Origin: a virus
Strand: one strand, 5' to 3'
Length of the DNA: 64,000 nt
Virus record (IMG/VR): IMGVR_UViG_3300027815_000080
Coordinates: 17,358 to 81,357 of that record
This document shows, in pieces, positions 29,988-64,000 of this stretch; position 1 is the stretch's first letter; every line of letters begins with the position of its first letter. Both the position numbers and the translations under genes were made by a program. Below the pieces are notes generated by a model, which worked only from the letters and a program-made list of their open reading frames with translations, made no database searches and was not told where the DNA came from.

Positions 29988-30449
29988 GTGCTCAGGGCTA
30001 CCGACCTCGCTTGGGCAGCGGGCTTCCTTGAGGGGGAAGGCTCATTCGGATGCTGGCAGCATGGTCGTTACCGGCGGCTGACTGTTTCAGCTGTTCAGGT
30101 CCAGAGAGAGCCGCTGGAGCGGCTTCAGAAGATCTTCGGCGGGAACATCTGCATAGGCCACTCGAAGAAGAAGAATGAGCAAGACAGGTACAAATGGTCG
30201 TTCGACTCAGCCAGGGCAGCGGGCCTCATGATGACGGTCTACGCCTACATGAGTCCACGCAGGCGGGAACAGATTCAGGCGGCCCTAGCTCAATGGAAAA
30301 TAGCGCCCGTCGAGCGCAAGTACCGCACGCACTGCCAAGCCAAACATCCTTACTCAGGGACCAACCTCATCATTCGCAAGGACGGCGCTCGTGTGTGCCG
30401 GGAGTGTTGTAATGCGGCGCAGCGCAGGTGGTACGGGGCCGCGGCGTAG
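29988..30449 (+). CDS. Free-standing LAGLIDADG homing endonuclease with C-terminal zinc finger
   Basis: WAAGFLEGEGSF; THCQAKHPYSGTN...VCREC; lower GC3. Confidence 0.85.
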   Translation: MLRATDLAWAAGFLEGEGSFGCWQHGRYRRLTVSAVQVQREPLERLQKIFGGNICIGHSKKKNEQDRYKWSFDSARAAGLMMTVYAYMSPRRREQIQAALAQWKIAPVERKYRTHCQAKHPYSGTNLIIRKDGARVCRECCNAAQRRWYGAAA

Positions 30450-46036: not shown

Positions 46037-46498
46037 ATGGGCAGCAAGCCACACCAGATCGCCTGGTATCAGAGAAATCGTGAGCAGATCCTTGCCGCGC
46101 GGAAGGAGCGCTACGCCGCCATGACCGCCGGCGTGGAGTACAAAGCCCCAAAGCGGGTGAAAGCGTACCAGACCAAGGACGAGCGGGAAGCGTACATGCG
46201 GCGCTGGCGCGAGGCGAATCCGGATACGTTTGTCCGCCTGGGGGCCGGGGTTAGGCTCTCAGGGGCGGCTTATAACGCAATGCTGGCCCAGCAGGGCGGA
46301 CGCTGCGCGATCTGCGGAGATCTGCCGGGGTGCCGGCGACTGGCGATCGATCACGAACATGCACAACCTACTGTCCGTGGCCTCCTCTGCTTCAGGTGCA
46401 ATACGGCCCTCGGCTCTTTCCAGGACAACCCGGCGTTGCTTCGGGCGGCGGCGGGCTATCTTGAGAGGCATCAGTCGCGGCACTTGATGGAGGCCTAA
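46037..46498 (+). CDS. Endonuclease VII-type HNH endonuclease
   Basis: YNAML..QGGRCAIC...LAIDH.H....VRGLLC..CNTALG.F.DN...L..A..YL. Confidence 0.9.
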   Translation: MGSKPHQIAWYQRNREQILAARKERYAAMTAGVEYKAPKRVKAYQTKDEREAYMRRWREANPDTFVRLGAGVRLSGAAYNAMLAQQGGRCAICGDLPGCRRLAIDHEHAQPTVRGLLCFRCNTALGSFQDNPALLRAAAGYLERHQSRHLMEA

Positions 46499-56347: not shown

Positions 56348-56599
56348 ATGGGTTGCGTACTCGTGGCGACCTTCGAGCAGCCGATCGGGCACTCGATGGA
56401 GGGGTTCGTGCTGAAGCATGTGGTCTACTGGTGCCAGCCTCAGTACGGGACCCCCAACCTCAAGATCGAGCGCCAGGTGGTCAACGGCCGGACCGGGCAG
56501 GCGATGGGCAGCAGCGACTGGAACTTCTACGAGGTCCCGATCAAGCACGCCGCCACGGAGTCGCCAGCCCCAGCCGACCATCAGAACGTGGCGCCATGA
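56348..56599 (+). CDS. Hypothetical protein
   Basis: Protein-like 83 aa; stop overlaps next ATG. Confidence 0.55.
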   Translation: MGCVLVATFEQPIGHSMEGFVLKHVVYWCQPQYGTPNLKIERQVVNGRTGQAMGSSDWNFYEVPIKHAATESPAPADHQNVAP

Positions 56600-56820
56600 A
56601 GGTCCGCACCATCGGGCAGGCCGACATCGTCTCCATCGAGCGCGTCCTGACCATCGCGCTCGACGAAGACGAGTGCCTCCCCACGGGCGAGCTCGAGGAG
56701 GGGACATATGCGCTGGACAGCGCGGGCCGGGTCTGGCGGCTCTGCGAGACCGTGAGCGGCCTGGTGGAGCACTTCACCGAGTCGGACGGCGTCAAACGGC
56801 GCCGCGCCAAGCGGACATGA
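56596..56820 (+). CDS. Hypothetical protein
   Basis: ATGA overlaps at both ends. Confidence 0.6.
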   Translation: MKVRTIGQADIVSIERVLTIALDEDECLPTGELEEGTYALDSAGRVWRLCETVSGLVEHFTESDGVKRRRAKRT

Positions 56821-59800
56821 GCGTTCTCGACGAGATCGCCGACGAGGTCTTCCCTGCGGAGAAACCGACCGCATTCTCCGCACCCGCTGCGGAGAAACAG
56901 CCGGCCGCGACCGTCTCCGTCCTCGACGAGGTAGCCGACGAGGTCTTCGAGGGCAAGCCCCCGAAAGAGCCGGAGCCTGGGATCCTGTCCCGCGCTGCCT
57001 CAGCTGTGACCTCCGCTGTCAGAGAAGGGGTCTCGGCGACTCCGTTCGGGCGGGCTCTCGGGTTCAAGCCGACGGGCCCCGCGGTGGCCGCAGGCGCGGC
57101 CGCGCCGCCGAAGGACGTGGCGCTCCCGCAGGGGCCAACTCCGGAGGCGCTCAAGGCGACCGGTCGCTCAGCCTCGGTCATCCCGGAGCCGGTGGCGCCG
57201 CCGCCGCCCGTCCCGGTGAAGCTCGGCCCGGTGCCAGGCCTCGAGGCCGTGACCGCCGAAGCTCAGAAGGCCCCACTGCTCGAGCGCGTGTCGGGAGCCG
57301 CACCCGGAAGCCCGCTCCCGGTGCCGGAGCGCCCAGCGCCAGGCGGGATGCTCGGGCGAGCCGCCGCAACGGCCGGAGTCGTGGATCCGGAGACGGTGAG
57401 GCGCCGGGCCGCCGAGGCCGAGTTCGCAGCCTCCTCGGTCATGGCCAAGCCGGAAGGGGTCGATCCAGGCTGGTGGCAGGTGCAGCAAGACATCAAGCAA
57501 GCCCGGCGCGTCGTCAGCGCCATGCCGGACCAGTTCGCCAACCGGGTCCTCTTCGGGATCCCCAACGCGATCAAGGACACCTTCGGATTCGATAGCCCCC
57601 AGGCGCGGGCCCCGCAGTCCACCGCCGAGGCGATCACGGGCGGCACGGGTGACCTAGCCGGGTTCATCGTCGGCCCGGCCAAGGTGGCCCACGCGATGCT
57701 GGCCACCAACATCACCAAGGCCCTCGCACCGCAGGCCGGGAACGCGCTCGGGACCATCATGGCGAAGAGCATCGCCAACGAGGCGGCGACACTGGCCGTG
57801 GCCAGCGGCCTCGCGCACGCGGGCGACGTGACCCAGGCCGACAGCATGAAGGAGGCCTTCCATCAGCTGGGCGAGCACGTGAAGGGGGGGGCCATCCTCG
57901 GCGCGACCTTCGGGGGGCTCGGGAACGTCATCCCCGCCAACACTCTGATGCAGCGGGCCGCCCGCCTCGGCGTCGGCCTCGGGGTCCTCGACGTGGTCCA
58001 GGGCACGTCGATCACCGACGACCGGGCGCTCGCCCAGAAGGTGTACGACTACGGCCTGAACGTCTACTTCCTCTGGAAGGGCAAGGACCCGCGGGCGATC
58101 AAGGCATCGATCGAGACGGCGGCCGCGGCCCGGAGCAAGCCCGGGGCCGAGGTGACCCCGGAGCAGGTACTCAAGTCGGTCCTCGACAAGGCGACCGAGC
58201 GGGCCGCGAAGCTGAAGGACGAGCCCGCCGCGCCCGGGGCACCGGCACCGGACCGGAGCGCGGAGCTCTCAGCCATCCTCGCGGAGGAGCTTGCCGCCGC
58301 TACGGCCCCGCTGAAGAGCGCCGCCGAGGTGGCCGTCGAGAAGACTGGGGGCCAGATCATCTCGGCCCCGGCTGGCGCGGCCGCGGCGGCGCCGGAGATC
58401 GTCCTCGCCGGCGGGCCGCGCCCCGCCGCCCGCCCAGCCGCCCCGCCTCGGCCGACACAAAACGTCGGCATCCCCGGACAAGTGCCGACAATTGGTGCCG
58501 GCCCCGTCCGGATCCTGGGGCCCTCCGGGCGCCCGGTGGACGCCATCCCGGCCCCGGTCGAAGGCCTGAAATCGGCCCAGGATCTTGCCGCGGAGCGGGC
58601 GAAGGGGATCAGCCGTCCGGCCCGCCCCGCGTCCCAGGCGCCCCCCGCCGCGGTCCCGGAGGTGCCGTCTGGCGCCACGCCCGCGGTCGCCGCAGCGTCA
58701 GCCGACCGCCCGGTGCCGAGCCTGTCCTTCAAGGACTACGTCGAGGTCTCGGGCAAGAAGTGGCCGCTCACCTCGAGGGAACCGGACTACGCCCGCCTCC
58801 GCTTCGAGTTCGACGACATGAAGAAGGGCCTGTACGAGGCCCGGCCCGTGGGGGACGGCCGGTGGGCGGTCATCAACCGGAAGACCGGAGAAGAGGTGGA
58901 CCACCTCCCGAGCGGGGCCAAGGCCCAGCTGGAGAGCAACCGCCTGAATGTCGTCGTCACGCTCGACGCCTGGCGGAACGCCCAGGTCCCGCAGGCCCCG
59001 GTCCGGATGGTCCTCCCGGAGCGTAAGGCCGACCTCTCGGCCAAGCCCGCGCCGGAGCCGACGGTGGAACCCGGATCCGCGGCCGCCCAGCAGAAGGAGA
59101 CGGAAGCCGCACTCACCGGTCCGAAGCCCAGCGCCGAGCCGCCAGCCCCGGCCAAGGCTCCAGCCCCGCCGGCCGCGAGCGTGCTGATCGGCAAGACCCA
59201 AGAGATCCGGGTGCCGGCCGGGAGCAAGTACCAGATCCGGTACGAGGTGGTCGAGGCCGACTCAATGATCCCGTCCCACGACCCGCGGACCTTCGCCAAG
59301 GACCCCCGCTACCCGGAGGGGGTGCAGAACCGGCCCTACCACTCCGACAAGAGCGAGCAGGCGAAGGTCATCCGGCAGGGGCAGGACTTCGAGCCGCTCT
59401 TCCTGGTGAGCCCGCAGCCGAGCTCTGGCGGTACGCCGATCATCGCCCCCGACTCCAACGTGGTCCTCTCGGGCAACAGCCGGACGATGTCGCTGCTCCG
59501 GACCCGCGGGACCGAGGCCTACGACCGCTACAAAGCAGCGCTGGCCGAGATGGCCCCCGCGCTCGGCCTGAAGGCGGAGGACCTCGCCAAGGTCCAGAAC
59601 CCGGTGCTGGTCCGCCGCTTGGTCGGGACGGACACCACGCCGGAGTTCTACCGACGCTTCGCCGAGGAGACGAACCAGGGCTTCAAGAAACCACCGAAGC
59701 CAGATGAAGAATATCTGGCGGGGGGACAGCGGGTCGCGGAAGAGGAAGCGCCTTACGGGGCGAGCGGCTCGCCGGAGGGCGAGAAGCCGCGCGCAGCGAG

Positions 59801-62800
59801 TGCGTCGGACGACAGGATCGATCCAGAGCCCCAGTCATCCCAGGAACCCTTGACCCAGGCCGAGGTCTTGGGGTCCCAGCGCCGGACCGACGCGCCCCCG
59901 TCAGGGGTTTCGACGACCCGCGACAGAGTTCCTTCAGAGAGAGTGATCGAGGAGAAGACCGCAGGGAGTGCCATAGCTGCCACCTCCACCCCAAGTGTAA
60001 AGCAGCCCGTGCGGACGGTCAATGAGCTTCTCAAGATCGCGGTCGAGCATCAGCCGGGGGTGACCGGGAGCCTCAAGGACGCGATCCGCGACATTCCCGG
60101 CGCGGAGTTCCTGAGCGCCCGCATCAAGGCCCTGGATTCCATCGAGGCGAAGACGGTACGGAAGGATGCCGACGCCGACGCCCTCCACGACTATCTCGGT
60201 GCTCGCATCACGGTGGCCACGCCAGAGGCGCTCGGGCGAGTCGTTGACGCCATCGAGCGCCGATTCCGCACCGTCGAGAAGGACGACAAGCGCGAGGCCC
60301 CGACAGCATGGGGCTATCGCGCCATGCACCTCGACATGAAGACGCCGGACGGCTTCATCTTTGAAGTGCAGGTGCTCCCGAAGGAAGTCGCGGTGTACCA
60401 GGACCTCAAGCCGAATGGCGGCCACGTGCTCTACAAACGATGGCAGGGCCGAGACGATCTCACGGTCGCGCAGCGTGACCAGTTCGCCGCCGACATGGCC
60501 GAGAGCAACGCCCGATACCAGGCGGCCTATGATGCCTGGCGGGGGCAAGGGCGCGTGGCCGAGAAGCCGGCCGAGTACACGCCCGAGAAGGCGCCAGAGC
60601 CGGAGCTCCCAGACTACGACCTTCCGCCGGTGAGCATGGCCGAAGTGGCCGATGCGGGCGGCGGCCGCGGGGTCGCTCGCGCTGCGGGCGGCCTGCTCAT
60701 GCGGATGGTCGGCGGGGTCGCCGAACCCAAGGCCGGCTACGGTAGTGTCCAGATCCGGGCCGCGTCCTACCGTGACAAGCCAGGATTCACCATCTCAGGC
60801 ACCGACACGCAGGGCCGGTCAGTGAAGGTATTCTCGGAGCACCGCCACGTCGCCGAGCACATCCGCGGCAAGATTCTCCGTGGCGAGGAAACCATGGCCC
60901 GGGACTTCGACCCGGAGGGACCCGCTCGCAGCGGCAGAGTGGCCGAGCCCAAAGCCCTCACCGAAGGTCAGCCACTCTTCAGCCCGGAGTCGCCCTACGC
61001 GGCGAGCCAGGCCAAGGCCCGGAAGGGCGCGACGACGGCCGACCGGGAGACCGCGCAACTGGCGCTCTTCGACCTCGATCAAGCGGCGAAGCAGCCGGTC
61101 GAGTCGATCGTGGAGAAGAAACACGCGGAAAGGGCCACCAAGCGTCCCCTTCGGGGCGAGAACGCGGGGGCCGGGGTCCGGACCGTGTCGCGGACGATCG
61201 ACGAGTTCAAGGACAAGGGCTTCATCGACTTCCGCGGGCAGACCGTGCGCGAGGGGCCGGAGGGCCTGCGCGACCTCGCCGTCATCGGCCAGATCGCCCG
61301 GGACCCGCGCTACGAGACCTTCCGGTACTTCTACACCAAGGGCGACACGATCGTCGGGAGCGAGGCGTTCTCGAGCCGCCTGCCCGGGGCGACCAACATC
61401 CACGAGGGGGTGCAGAGGCAGCCAGCGGGCGGGTTTGGGATGGCCGAGGTTGACCTCGAGATCGCCCGCCGCCGGACCGACCAAGCCAAGAGCTTCGCTG
61501 GCATGCGTCGCCGGATGGAGCGCCTCGGGGCCGACGGGTACTATGTCATGCACAATCACCCGAGCGGGCGGGCCGAGCCGTCCCGTGAGGACCTCAATAC
61601 CACCGAATATCTCGCCAGCAAGGTCCCGGGGTTCAAGGGGCACGTGGTCATCGACTCGGGAGAGTACGCGAGGATCGTACTCTCGGACCGTGGCCATGCC
61701 GTTGCCACCGTGGAGCGCCTCGACGCCCAGCGCCTCGACGCCCCGAAGGCCGAAGATCCGCTGCTCCGGCGCGTCGGGACCCAGAAGATCCTGAGCGCCG
61801 AGGATCTCGCCCAGATCGGCCGGAACCTGAAGACCCCCGAGAACTACGTGAGCCTCGTGCACGGGGACGCGAGCGGCGCCGTGCGGGCCGTCCAGGAGAT
61901 GCCGGTCAACCTGTTCATGCGGGAGACGGAAGCCCAGAACTTCATCCGGGGGCAGCAGCGCGCGTTCGGGGCGAGCTCGACCTTCGCGGTGTTCAAGCCG
62001 ACCGGCATGACGCTCGACCAGGCCCGCCAGTACATCCGGCAGGGGGTCCTCACGGATGCCATTGCCCCCGGGGCCCCAGCTGCCGAGAGCGCCCTGAACG
62101 TCCTCCAGGGCCGCGGGGAGATGCCGATCTCCGGGACCCCGCGCGAACCCGAGCGGGACCTCCGGACGGTCCGGGTGCAGGAAGAGAGGGAGCCCTACGG
62201 CGACTTCGAGCGCCTGAAGCCGGAGACCAGGCAGAAACTGGTGGACTTCGGCCGCGATGTCCTCAAGGACAACAAGACCGACTTCGCGTCCTGGTCGAAG
62301 GCGATGCGGGAGAAGCTCGGTGAGAAGTCCGCGGGCACCCTCCCGGGCGCGTGGTCCGCGCTCATGCAGGAGCAGGCCCGCACCCAAGCGAAGCCCACCG
62401 CGAGACCGACGGAGGGGAAAGGCGGCAAGCCGCCGGAACCACCGCAAGACATCCCGCGCTCGGCCCCGCCGATCGAGCCCGCGCCAGGCCTCTCAGAGCC
62501 GCAACTCAAGCTCGGCCTGCACAAGGACCTGCTCGACGCCGCGGAGAGCCTCTTCAGGACTGGCAAGATCGAGCGCGACCCGACCCAGCTCCTCTCCGAC
62601 CAGATCCTCGACGCGATCCGCGACGAGAAGATCCGGGTTGAGGATCTCGTGGGGGAGTTTGACCGGCGCAACGTGAACGTGGGCGACTTCTTCCGGTCCT
62701 CCGTCAGCAACGCAGCCCGGCGCATGGGGGCCCTGGGCCTCTTGCAGCAGCGCATCAACCGCCTTGAGGCGGAGCTGGCCGGCGCGGGGGCGCCGCCGAA

Positions 62801-64000
62801 GGGGCCGCGCCGACCCGGAGACCCCGACGAGCCGGAGCGCCTCCAAAAGATCAAGACCATCGGCGACCTGCTCGACGTGGCGCGGGCCATCGACCCCGTC
62901 ACGCAGCGGGGGCCCTTCGGGGGCGGCAAGCCGATGGCCTGGTGGCGCCGCGCCGACAACATCCAGCGCGGGATGCTGGTGACCAGGCTGTCTACGGCCA
63001 CGTGGAACTTTGGGACGCAGGTGGGCCGGCTTGGGATCGACGTGCTGGACCAGGGGATCCAGGGTGGCCTTCAGCGGGCCTTCGGCAAGGAGGTCACCGC
63101 GCATCCGGCCGACAGCTTCCGGGCGCTGATGGAGGTGTTCGCCCAGGCCAACCCGGCCGAGCACAAGCGGGTCCGCGGACTGGTCGATGCGCTCCTGGAA
63201 GGGCTCCCGCGGGAGCAGGATCGGCTCTTCAACAACTACTCGGCCGATGTGCAGCGGGTGGCCAAGACGCAGGGCGCCGAGAAGATCGCCGAGAAGGCCT
63301 TCGGGGTCGCCGAGAAGACCGTCGAGACCCTGAACATCTTCAACCGCTTCCAGGAGTACGTGGTGCGGCGGGCGGTGTTCCAGGCCGAGCTCGACGCCAA
63401 GCTGCGGGCTCGCGGCATTGACATCGAGGTGGCGGCCAAGGACGACGCGGTCCGTCGCAAAATCCCGATCACCGACATCCGGGACGCAATCCAGAGGTCC
63501 CTCGAGTTGACCTTCTCCGAGGCCCCGGCCTTCGGGTCGCCAGGCTACAACTTCGTCAAGTGGATGAACGGGGTCCCGGGGTTGAGTCTGCTGACCGGCA
63601 TCCGGTTCCCGCGCTTCATGGTCAACAGCATCAAGTTCTTCTTTGAGTTCAGCCCGCTGGGGTTCACCAAGATGATCACCCCGGCCGAACGGGCCAAGTT
63701 CCGGCAGGGCGACATGAAGACCATCAGCCGCGCGACCCTCGGCCTCGGCCTGCTCGGCGCCGCCTATCTGATCCGCTCGCAACAGGACGACGACACCAAA
63801 TGGAACGAGATCCGGCTCCCCGGCATGGAGGACGCCATCGACATCCGGCGGGCGAACCCCTTCGCCGCGTACCTCTTCGTGGCGGACCTCGCCCACCGGG
63901 CGATCAATGGCAGGCTCTACGGGGGCAACATCGCGGCCGAGACGGCCAAGGCCGTGCTGGGCGTCAACGTGCGCGGCGGGACCGGGCTCCAGATGATGGA
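56817..64000 (+). CDS. Giant polyvalent ejection-type protein (>2390 aa, 3'-truncated; missing from ORF track)
   Basis: Starts MSVLDEIADEVF; no stop in the segments I translated, and its absence from the ORF track fits a frame with no stop in the window; ddrB-ParB-like, RelA/SpoT-like and JAB-like domains plus helical C-terminal region. Confidence 0.88.
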   Translation, partial: MSVLDEIADEVFPAEKPTAFSAPAAEKQPAATVSVLDEVADEVFEGKPPKEPEPGILSRAASAVTSAVREGVSATPFGRALGFKPTGPAVAAGAAAPPKDVALPQGPTPEALKATGRSASVIPEPVAPPPPVPVKLGPVPGLEAVTAEAQKAPLLERVSGAAPGSPLPVPERPAPGGMLGRAAATAGVVDPETVRRRAAEAEFAASSVMAKPEGVDPGWWQVQQDIKQARRVVSAMPDQFANRVLFGIPNAIKDTFGFDSPQARAPQSTAEAITGGTGDLAGFIVGPAKVAHAMLATNITKALAPQAGNALGTIMAKSIANEAATLAVASGLAHAGDVTQADSMKEAFHQLGEHVKGGAILGATFGGLGNVIPANTLMQRAARLGVGLGVLDVVQGTSITDDRALAQKVYDYGLNVYFLWKGKDPRAIKASIETAAAARSKPGAEVTPEQVLKSVLDKATERAAKLKDEPAAPGAPAPDRSAELSAILAEELAAATAPLKSAAEVAVEKTGGQIISAPAGAAAAAPEIVLAGGPRPAARPAAPPRPTQNVGIPGQVPTIGAGPVRILGPSGRPVDAIPAPVEGLKSAQDLAAERAKGISRPARPASQAPPAAVPEVPSGATPAVAAASADRPVPSLSFKDYVEVSGKKWPLTSREPDYARLRFEFDDMKKGLYEARPVGDGRWAVINRKTGEEVDHLPSGAKAQLESNRLNVVVTLDAWRNAQVPQAPVRMVLPERKADLSAKPAPEPTVEPGSAAAQQKETEAALTGPKPSAEPPAPAKAPAPPAASVLIGKTQEIRVPAGSKYQIRYEVVEADSMIPSHDPRTFAKDPRYPEGVQNRPYHSDKSEQAKVIRQGQDFEPLFLVSPQPSSGGTPIIAPDSNVVLSGNSRTMSLLRTRGTEAYDRYKAALAEMAPALGLKAEDLAKVQNPVLVRRLVGTDTTPEFYRRFAEETNQGFKKPPKPDEEYLAGGQRVAEEEAPYGASGSPEGEKPRAASASDDRIDPEPQSSQEPLTQAEVLGSQRRTDAPPSGVSTTRDRVPSERVIEEKTAGSAIAATSTPSVKQPVRTVNELLKIAVEHQPGVTGSLKDAIRDIPGAEFLSARIKALDSIEAKTVRKDADADALHDYLGARITVATPEALGRVVDAIERRFRTVEKDDKREAPTAWGYRAMHLDMKTPDGFIFEVQVLPKEVAVYQDLKPNGGHVLYKRWQGRDDLTVAQRDQFAADMAESNARYQAAYDAWRGQGRVAEKPAEYTPEKAPEPELPDYDLPPVSMAEVADAGGGRGVARAAGGLLMRMVGGVAEPKAGYGSVQIRAASYRDKPGFTISGTDTQGRSVKVFSEHRHVAEHIRGKILRGEETMARDFDPEGPARSGRVAEPKALTEGQPLFSPESPYAASQAKARKGATTADRETAQLALFDLDQAAKQPVESIVEKKHAERATKRPLRGENAGAGVRTVSRTIDEFKDKGFIDFRGQTVREGPEGLRDLAVIGQIARDPRYETFRYFYTKGDTIVGSEAFSSRLPGATNIHEGVQRQPAGGFGMAEVDLEIARRRTDQAKSFAGMRRRMERLGADGYYVMHNHPSGRAEPSREDLNTTEYLASKVPGFKGHVVIDSGEYARIVLSDRGHAVATVERLDAQRLDAPKAEDPLLRRVGTQKILSAEDLAQIGRNLKTPENYVSLVHGDASGAVRAVQEMPVNLFMRETEAQNFIRGQQRAFGASSTFAVFKPTGMTLDQARQYIRQGVLTDAIAPGAPAAESALNVLQGRGEMPISGTPREPERDLRTVRVQEEREPYGDFERLKPETRQKLVDFGRDVLKDNKTDFASWSKAMREKLGEKSAGTLPGAWSALMQEQARTQAKPTARPTEGKGGKPPEPPQDIPRSAPPIEPAPGLSEPQLKLGLHKDLLDAAESLFRTGKIERDPTQLLSDQILDAIRDEKIRVEDLVGEFDRRNVNVGDFFRSSVSNAARRMGALGLLQQRINRLEAELAGAGAPPKGPRRPGDPDEPERLQKIKTIGDLLDVARAIDPVTQRGPFGGGKPMAWWRRADNIQRGMLVTRLSTATWNFGTQVGRLGIDVLDQGIQGGLQRAFGKEVTAHPADSFRALMEVFAQANPAEHKRVRGLVDALLEGLPREQDRLFNNYSADVQRVAKTQGAEKIAEKAFGVAEKTVETLNIFNRFQEYVVRRAVFQAELDAKLRARGIDIEVAAKDDAVRRKIPITDIRDAIQRSLELTFSEAPAFGSPGYNFVKWMNGVPGLSLLTGIRFPRFMVNSIKFFFEFSPLGFTKMITPAERAKFRQGDMKTISRATLGLGLLGAAYLIRSQQDDDTKWNEIRLPGMEDAIDIRRANPFAAYLFVADLAHRAINGRLYGGNIAAETAKAVLGVNVRGGTGLQMM
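59190..59690 (+). other. ddrB-like ParB domain within the giant protein
   Basis: YEVVEADSMIPSH...YPEGVQNRPY...GTPII....VLSGNSRTM.L...PVLVRR. Confidence 0.75.
59699..59719 (-). terminator. Hairpin downstream of the nested antisense gene
   Basis: GCCAGAT-7nt-ATCTGGC, followed on the minus strand by TTCGGTGGTTTCTT. Confidence 0.45.
59753..59974 (-). CDS. Nested antisense gene (73 aa), candidate antitoxin/immunity protein
   Basis: GGAGGT-N7-ATG, own promoter, Trp-rich globular-looking product, not in the codon-aligned shadow frame. Confidence 0.75.
   Translation of the reverse strand: MALPAVFSSITLSEGTLSRVVETPDGGASVRRWDPKTSAWVKGSWDDWGSGSILSSDALAARGFSPSGEPLAP
59994..60022 (-). promoter_or_regulatory. 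Near-consensus sigma70 promoter for the nested gene
   Basis: TTGACC (60022-60017)-N17-TACACT (59999-59994). Confidence 0.8.
60003..60545 (+). other. RelA/SpoT-like nucleotide pyrophosphokinase domain within the giant protein
   Basis: RIKALDSIEAK, HDYLGARI, GYRAMHL, FEVQV, HVLYK. Confidence 0.8.
61200..61680 (+). other. JAB/RadC-like domain within the giant protein
   Basis: RDPRYETFRY...MHNHPSGRAEPSREDLNTT...GHVVID. Confidence 0.8.

Follow-up and report, generated by a model that had tools for sequence, protein, structure and literature searches.

A 64,000-nucleotide stretch of the IMG/VR virus record IMGVR_UViG_3300027815_000080 (bases 17358-81357 of the 89,082-bp record), hereafter the window, ends inside a giant open reading frame (ORF) that encodes an array of enzyme domains. 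When open-ended frames are allowed, the + strand carries one frame that stays open from 56418 up to the end of the window, of which the first 133 codons are an Arg/Pro-rich read-through. ATG 56817 is the credible start of the gene; it overlaps the stop codon (TGA) of a 155-aa ORF lying upstream (ACATGA), and alignments of relatives on other contigs begin at residues 1-4 of the giant protein. The stop lies at genome position 82021, equivalent to window position 64664, and the protein comprises 2,615 aa. Because colinear relatives with 37-84% identity are encoded on other phage contigs, the giant ORF is not a chance frame. An earlier note, made from the letters of the window, had described an open frame to the window end that the ORF track had missed. 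The frame is confirmed, and it is indeed absent from the default ORF list; this is probably a window-edge effect, frames running off the end being omitted.

The record is rated complete by CheckV. Bases 1-126 recur at 88949-89074, followed by AGATCGGA (a sequencing-adapter fragment). As the first 126 bases recur at the record's end, the 89,082-bp assembly is closed on itself, although its IMG/VR class is linear.

Domain architecture of the giant protein

The locations of all features are collected in Table 1. The array consists, in order, of a small domain, a ddrB-like ParB domain (ddrB-ParB), a RelA/SpoT-type synthetase domain, a second small domain and a RadC/JAB module. The earlier note had proposed the three named domains, two small segments and a helical C-terminal region. 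Pfam finds the three domains in the places proposed, both small segments are present and conserved in relatives, and the C-terminal region is all-helical in an AlphaFold2 (AF2) model. The JAB domain was likewise recovered, within a conserved module that is wider than the 61200-61680 first suggested.

The Pfam match to ddrB-ParB spans positions 2-120 of the 121 in PF18763 (cut-off 27.6 bits). This region is also covered by two nameless phage families of PHROGs, phrog_5143 and phrog_2299, and matches DdrB of P1/P7, D6, and Acinetobacter and Alcaligenes phages in tblastn searches. RelA_SpoT (PF04607, cut-off 27 bits) is matched at aa 1102-1186 with 40.1 bits, and RadC/JAB (PF04002, cut-off 22.1 bits) at aa 1570-1601 with 26 bits. 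NCBIfam assigns the JAB module to RadC. The module contains the JAMM metal-site motif E...HxHx7Sx2D, with the signature HNHPSGRAEPSRED at aa 1579-1592 (window 61551-61592); H1579, H1581, S1589, D1592 and the upstream Glu residues E1500 and E1516 are invariant in six relatives. Among PDB sequences, the module matches only the RadC homologue 2qlc, weakly and across the motif.

The N-terminal part contains Pro/Ala-rich stretches, followed by a Gly/Ala-rich helical stretch at aa ~265-420. At its very start an acidic motif, SVLDE[IV]ADEVF, is duplicated (SVLDEIADEVF at aa 2-12 and SVLDEVADEVF at aa 34-44; window 56820-56948), which might be a packaging or docking signal. Membrane-spanning segments were considered and dropped after a Kyte-Doolittle scan, which revealed no membrane-helix-like segment in the giant protein.

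Table 1. Features of the giant gene and its upstream neighbour, with residues of the giant protein and window coordinates.
Feature	Residues (aa)	Window position	Strand	Basis or remark
155-aa ORF		56353..56820	+	stop overlaps giant ATG (ATGA); no Pfam family
Giant ORF	1-2394 of 2,615	56817..64000	+	extends 664 bases past window; colinear relatives
N-terminal part	1-630	56817..58706	+	lineage-conserved, 48-84% identity in close relatives
Small domain 1	635-725	58719..58991	+	kept in relatives, including the distant P0159, P0161 and P0163
ddrB-like ParB domain	801-935	59217-59621	+	Pfam PF18763, 66 bits, 4.5e-18
Linker copy 1, RVAEEEAPYG	973	59733..59762	+	cassette junction
RelA/SpoT-homologue synthetase domain	1060-1245	59994-60551	+	Pfam, AF2 whole fold, Foldseek, clade profile
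Linker copy 2, RVAEKPAEYT	1247	60555..60584	+	cassette junction
Linker copy 3, GVAEPKAGYG	1301	60717..60746	+	
Small domain 2	1309-1373	60741..60935	+	between linker copies 3 and 4
Linker copy 4, RVAEPKALTE	1375	60939..60968	+	cassette junction
RadC-type JAB module	1446-1773	61152-62135	+	PF04002, NCBIfam RadC, 6 relatives
Linker copy 5, RVQEEREPYG	1787	62175..62204	+	cassette junction
All-helical carrier module	1892-2612	62490..64000, on past window	+	BLASTP, family HMM, AF2

Integrity and predicted acceptor of the RelA/SpoT domain

A search with aa 1060-1260 returned 532 relatives at E <=0.001 (HMMER, 1.84 billion representative proteins), the majority of them embedded in proteins of 600-3,800 aa. 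Conservation was assessed in an alignment of the best 150 of the 532. The synthetase motif residues are nearly always kept (R1102, K1104, K1112, D1125, G1128, R1130, G1166-Y-R, H1171, E1183, Q1185, H1203, Y1206): K1112 and D1125 occur in all 150 sequences, E1183 in 149 and Q1185 in 145. They represent the basic residues of the RxKxxxSxxxK type, the Mg-binding Asp, GY+xxH and the catalytic Glu-x-Gln. AF2 modelling from 30 short relatives yielded a mean predicted local distance difference test (pLDDT) score of 93.9. The top Foldseek matches of the model are RelQ/SAS1 (5dec/5ded) and RelP (6ewz/6fgj), with Rel, RelA, Tas1 and CapRel lower, all at a probability of 1.00. When a profile of the clade was compared with PDB sequences, the matches were RelA (2e-18), RelP (4e-17), RelQ (3e-15), Tas1 (2e-10) and CapRel (1e-3). 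NCBIfam returned only sub-threshold GTP diphosphokinase matches, far under every equivalog cut-off, and the domain therefore falls in no named equivalog.

By every sequence and fold criterion, the RelA/SpoT domain thus appears intact, and it is a predicted synthetase whose closest kin, by profile comparison, are (p)ppGpp synthetases. The earlier note had named a catalytically dead domain as the outcome that would undo its proposal; judged from the sequence this is not the case, all catalytic motifs being kept.

GDP/GTP, which would yield (p)ppGpp, is our tentative choice of acceptor. Guanosine-type enzymes are distinguished by a syn3 motif SxH from adenosine 3'-pyrophosphokinases, which have GxN (PMC12226406). 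In the present domain syn3 reads G-Y-R-A-M-H, in which the His of SxH is retained and the adenosine-type GxN is absent, and the Arg of syn2 is also retained. We regard ATP/ADP as a somewhat unlikely acceptor. The domain would in that case be an adenosine 3'-pyrophosphokinase like Tas1 or Apk2, delivered in the same way, that makes (p)ppApp, drains ATP and serves as a killing or arrest toxin. Although assayed phage-associated RelA/SpoT toxin domains yield only (p)ppApp (PMC12226406), and the structure of Tas1 (6ox6) matches well, with a template-modelling (TM) score of 0.61, the clade profile fits (p)ppGpp synthetases far better (1e-15 to 1e-18) than Tas1, and syn3 is A-x-H rather than G-x-N with the syn2 Arg kept. 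Likewise, the Zeta toxin found in the same slot of a relative suggests that a toxin is needed there, but the surroundings expected of such a toxin are wanting: MuF is absent from the genome's Pfam matches at E up to 1, neither an HD_4 alarmone hydrolase nor MazG was found in the genome, and the neighbours of the giant ORF belong to no known immunity family.

The fold is also shared with CapRel (7ztb/9erv), and toxSAS enzymes of the CapRel/FaRel2/PhRel2 kind are phage-linked. On this basis the domain could be a tRNA 3'-CCA pyrophosphokinase that stops translation at entry, an option put forward by the earlier note beside an alarmone synthetase. The tRNA CCA end is an improbable acceptor. CapRel is the weakest profile match among the RelA/SpoT-homologue structures compared, blocking translation would halt the phage's own early proteins too, and the adjoining genes match no antitoxin-like family. 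Some other acceptor altogether seems equally remote.

A podovirus carrier with exchangeable cargo

By sequence comparison, the C-terminal ~720 aa of the giant protein are the conserved core of a ~1,100-aa protein, encoded by the structural gene that comes last in HMO-2011-type podoviruses. Residues ~2040-2470 match a single gene in Puniceispirillum phage HMO-2011 and in Roseobacter phages CRP-1, CRP-2, CRP-345 and CRP-603 (tblastn). In HMO-2011 this is gp22 (1,128 aa; BLASTP 1e-26), which comes after the tail-fibre genes and closes the structural operon. Positions 301-1016 of a hidden Markov model (HMM) of the family align to aa 1892-2612 at 1.2e-102. The carrier protein is large, helical and encoded among tail/core genes, and the AF2 model of the module is all-alpha with moderate confidence (pLDDT 68.5). 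A single-protein query of the viral contigs in IMG/VR returned nothing; with an alignment as the query, 72 viral loci were found. Among the 58 distinct full-length family genes, 56 encode fewer than ~1,300 aa (one of them 599 aa), and the sole giant encodes 2,798 aa, on contig L007. Within the gp22-type family, the expansion is confined to this lineage.

On the identity of the carrier, P22 gp16 was an Atlas lead (0.88), and the PHROGs family phrog_6651, "internal virion protein", is touched at 0.014 by one relative and matches nothing in this genome. In addition, a 1,299-aa relative (L008:8045-11944) has a Gly-zipper stretch at aa 582-608, in its N-terminal half, and a weak acetyltransferase-like stretch at aa 345-421 (phrog_1249, E 0.0027). 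T7 IVP-A belongs to an acetyltransferase family (Hardies et al., PMC4819975), and this stretch is a weak lead only.

Fifteen giant relatives share the carrier module and differ in their sets of Pfam domains. RelA_SpoT is present in seven of them by precomputed Pfam, with an eighth (P0145) added by our own scan; a Zeta toxin is present in two, one has RadC only, and for five no Pfam family is listed. At least 22 of the best 150 RelA/SpoT relatives also carry ddrB-ParB. Individual relatives illustrate how the arrays vary. In P0153 (3,363 aa) the end parts are 84% and 75% identical to those of the giant protein and the RelA/SpoT domain 59%, and two inserts are added; P0003 (3,809 aa) has an added ART-PolyVal domain; and P0004 (2,100 aa) is without the JAB block. 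In the proteins of L007 and P0156 (2,798 and 2,768 aa), a Zeta toxin/AAA_33 domain lies between ddrB-ParB and JAB, which is the RelA/SpoT slot. Sequence comparison thus indicates that cargo is exchanged at fixed junctions between lineage-conserved end parts. One such event looks recent: window 58701-59690 (aa 629-958), comprising small domain 1 and ddrB-ParB, is 95% identical to P0003, whereas the flanks of the same pair are 52-64% identical and the N-terminal 628 aa have no BLAST match. This block looks like a single cassette exchanged between diverged phages.

The contigs of the giant relatives measure 76-93 kb where they are long enough. The giant-protein family has one match in 185,579 species genomes, on a 3.4-kb contig of a metagenome-assembled genome, and no tyrosine integrase was found in the present genome; on these two grounds the lineage fits a virulent lifestyle.

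The junctions carry a recurring peptide. Five copies occur in the giant protein (Table 1), against 0.02 expected from shuffles, and each comes after a cargo domain. The consensus from 13 copies across close relatives is R-V-[AQ]-E-x-x-[AE]-P-Y-[GE]; the motif is restricted to the group with 55-84% identity and absent from that with 35-41%. Homology breakpoints between relatives, at ~958-976, 1243-1254, 1298-1311, 1381 and 1791-1800, coincide with the five copies. The R-V-A-E-x-x-A-P-Y motif therefore marks cassette joints. Codon use differs between the five copies, which points to selection on the linker peptide and not on the DNA; for the same reason, a role of the linker as a DNA recombination joint was rejected.

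Genomic context, proposed delivery and comparison with known systems

The region upstream of the giant gene encodes a P22-like portal (2.9e-93) and a capsid protein of the Phage_capsid_3 family; fibre-like genes follow, then an ORF of 734 aa and the 155-aa ORF. When ten structural ORFs were compared with PHROGs, hardly any matches resulted. The giant gene closes this virion block, and a lysozyme gene comes next. In L007, the nearest related contig, the order of 155-aa ORF, giant gene and lysozyme-like ORF is conserved, and the ORF directly upstream of the giant gene is 45% identical to the 155-aa ORF. The 236-aa protein encoded after the giant ORF (L003:41-751) contains a phage lysozyme domain only at aa 120-211; its N-terminal ~90 aa are conserved in L007, and its lysozyme part has no match there. 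Further downstream lie ORFs of the endonuclease VII type and then genes for nonulosonic-acid synthesis.

Several other genes of the phage were recognized. Endonuclease VII domains occur in three ORFs (window 46037-46498, L003:2779-3306 and L003:3599-4069; E 5e-21 to 5e-23, 2e-17), one of them inside the structural module, and these look like free-standing homing-type nucleases. A 153-aa ORF directly upstream of the portal gene (window 29988-30449) gives a weak LAGLIDADG match (E 0.0009). At ~85.9-88.4 kb of the genome, a Polysacc_synt_2/epimerase ORF (L003:3876-5516; 1e-70) and a NeuB-family ORF (L003:5399-6352; 5e-34) suggest that the phage carries genes for nonulosonic-acid sugar synthesis.

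Polyvalent proteins were defined by Iyer et al. in 2017, who regarded a DdrB-like ParB and RelA/SpoT as components of the phage type (PMC5512222). The features by which such proteins are recognized are found here: at least two unrelated domains, the hallmark ddrB-ParB, mosaic relatives and a late/virion context. We consider it probable that the giant protein is a polyvalent protein of the phage type, built upon a structural carrier of podoviruses, and that it is injected with the DNA and acts by RelA/SpoT pyrophosphotransfer. As an internal (ejection) protein, it would be packed into the capsid in a few copies and pass into the cell along with the DNA. Once there, its RelA/SpoT domain would move pyrophosphate from ATP onto the 3'-OH of a purine nucleotide and impose a rapid growth arrest on the host, while the remaining domains would act on nucleotides or nucleic acids. 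The linkers would probably be processing sites or flexible joints, through which each cargo unit could work on its own. In this scheme we infer packaging, ejection, enzyme activity and its substrate, linker cleavage and benefit to the phage.

The giant protein might instead not be ejected at all: as a late cytoplasmic or structural protein, it could act in the producing cell, in takeover or the exclusion of rival phages, or on neighbours after lysis. This is unlikely in our view. The carrier has no link to proven ejection proteins in the searches made, and the giant gene adjoins a lysis gene; it is nevertheless the terminal gene of the virion block, with a stop/start overlap with the upstream ORF and conserved synteny. 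ddrB-ParB domains sit beside virion genes, and P1 packages its DdrB in the phage heads (PMC5512222). The nearest analogue, the 2,811-aa polyvalent protein gp47 of phi24B, was detected in virions by proteomics, and its ejection has been proposed (bioRxiv 10.64898/2026.04.10.717836). Moreover, toxin-type domains that are made late would act in an already dying cell.

Several observations weigh against the scheme of packaging, injection and pyrophosphotransfer. The phage is uncultured, and we infer rather than observe incorporation of the giant protein into its virions. With respect to the enzyme, syn4 reads EVQVLP throughout the clade in place of E-x-Q-x-R-T; furthermore, motif swaps in Apk2 left its specificity unchanged (PMC12226406), which makes substrate calls based on signatures weak. 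With respect to the carrier, the profile of 32 family members matched T7 gp14, gp15 and gp16 with a probability of at most 1.2% (hhalign, hmmsearch; gp16 1.2%) and phi24B gp47 with at most 0.6%. No PHROGs family was found for HMO-2011 gp22, CRP-345 gp40 or the carrier module. LPD38, an Atlas lead (0.96), was rejected after no HMM match to it was found in the genome or in the 32 family members. Foldseek gave no match to the carrier model at E up to 0.001, the module being long for the search, and VIA-align returned helical hairpins only, with Z up to 6. Hardies et al. saw no IVP-D homologue in HMO-2011 (PMC4819975). No firm homology emerged between the N-terminus of the giant protein and that of the ~1,100-aa family: hmmsearch gave a weak colinear match (0.013), and hhalign a probability of 0.2%. 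With respect to processing, no prohead protease was detected in Pfam scans of 19 structural-region ORFs, and P0004 has the linker motif without a JAB domain. Finally, alarmone accumulation hinders T7 infection and is suppressed by T7 (PMC13483052). As elevated (p)ppGpp hinders T7, the benefit of an injected (p)ppGpp synthetase is not obvious. The earlier note's claim of a polyvalent protein is thus upheld by the multiple enzyme domains, the hallmark ddrB-ParB and the position in the virion block, while the T7 alarmone data weigh against a simple benefit to the phage from the host reprogramming that it suggested.

A further, speculative step would make the array a polyprotein, cut at the R-V-A-E-x-x-A-P-Y joints in the capsid or on entry, which would free the enzymes, including an active alarmone synthetase. 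The exchangeable slot may then serve one task, since RelA/SpoT and the Zeta-type kinase would both use ATP to (pyro)phosphorylate the 3'-OH of a nucleotide or nucleotide-sugar; this task could be, for example, instant growth arrest or the disabling of a nucleotide used in host defence. We doubt that this step occurs. The chances are about even that the linkers are not cleavage sites, but are joints retained because cassettes exchange there, or short docking peptides. The coincidence of breakpoints with linkers, the limitation of the motif to the group with 55-84% identity and the missing prohead protease agree with such joints, but the peptide itself appears to be under selection, given the varied codons, and five copies in one protein far exceed the number expected.

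These results extend published ideas in defined respects. RelA/SpoT has been described beside DdrB-ParB in Helicobacter prophages, with the prediction of an alarmone-like response triggered by the phage, and such polyvalent proteins also occur in spirochaete prophages (PMC5512222). The inference of the earlier note is therefore a published prediction and not a new idea. No report of a bench test of a RelA/SpoT polyvalent protein, as predicted in 2017, was found in the literature searched. The new elements are the gp22-type carrier, the occurrence of RadC in an array of the phage type, the interchange of RelA/SpoT and Zeta toxin at a single slot, and the joint motif. The lineage constitutes a clean natural experiment, in which near-identical phages have one carrier with either RelA/SpoT or a Zeta toxin at one slot; in some of its phages the array includes an ADP-ribosyltransferase at another place, and others lack any recognisable enzyme. 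HMO-2011 gp22, an unannotated and very common marine podovirus gene, is thereby linked to a cargo-carrying role, and this argues indirectly for entry of gp22-like proteins into the cell. Should the domain make (p)ppGpp, the contrast with the alarmone-suppressing T7 would lead one to ask when a phage profits from a stringent-like arrest. Should an alarmone synthetase be released from a polyprotein, this would be the first demonstration that a virus injects a second-messenger synthetase.

Compared with the proteins of Iyer et al. 2017, the giant protein has the same combination of many effector domains in one late-gene polypeptide, rapid shuffling and the same predicted role at entry. It differs in belonging to a high-GC groundwater podovirus, in the near absence of its family from genomes of bacteria, in its carrier family and in the presence of RadC/JAB, RadC having been listed only for conjugative elements in the 2017 census (PMC5512222). 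In addition, no zincin MPTase was detected in the giant protein, unlike in the 2017 type.

Among podoviruses, IVP-D homologues host domains destined for the host cytoplasm, namely the virion RNA polymerase (vRNAP) in N4 gp50 and a methylase in gp60 of Pseudomonas phage H66 (PMC4819975). Like these two proteins and phi24B gp47, the giant protein is very large and mostly helical, ends a podovirus structural block and carries enzyme domains. In contrast to N4 gp50 and H66 gp60, it carries not one enzyme but an array of several domains that can be swapped, and no sequence or fold homology to T7 IVP-D, LPD38 or gp47 was found. Its carrier homology and its place as the last gene of the structural operon are shared with HMO-2011 gp22 and the proteins of CRP-1, CRP-2, CRP-345 and CRP-603, which are annotated as hypothetical. 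The gp22 relatives measure ~1,000-1,240 aa and have no Pfam cargo, whereas the giant protein has ~1,200-1,500 extra residues of enzyme domains.

The RelA/SpoT domain itself can be compared with two groups of enzymes. In temperate phages, RelA/SpoT toxins linked to MuF produce (p)ppApp (PMC12226406). The parallel with the Apk2 MuF toxins and the T6SS effector Tas1 lies in the fusion of a domain of RelA/SpoT pyrophosphokinase fold to a delivery part associated with the phage head, and in the variability of the toxic domain at one position. Unlike in Apk2, there is no MuF, the next gene encodes a lysozyme, no immunity genes of the IapK/Aph1 type are found (HD_4 is absent), syn3 has a guanosine-type signature, the domain lies inside the protein and not at its C-terminus, and the phage appears virulent. 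With RelQ/SAS1 (5dec, 5ded) and RelP/SAS2 (6ewz, 6fgk) the domain shares all synthetase motifs and a similar fold (Foldseek E 1e-8, TM 0.63-0.65). It departs from RelQ and RelP in having 13-20% identity to them, a syn4 of E-V-Q-V-L-P and a setting within a 2,615-aa protein.

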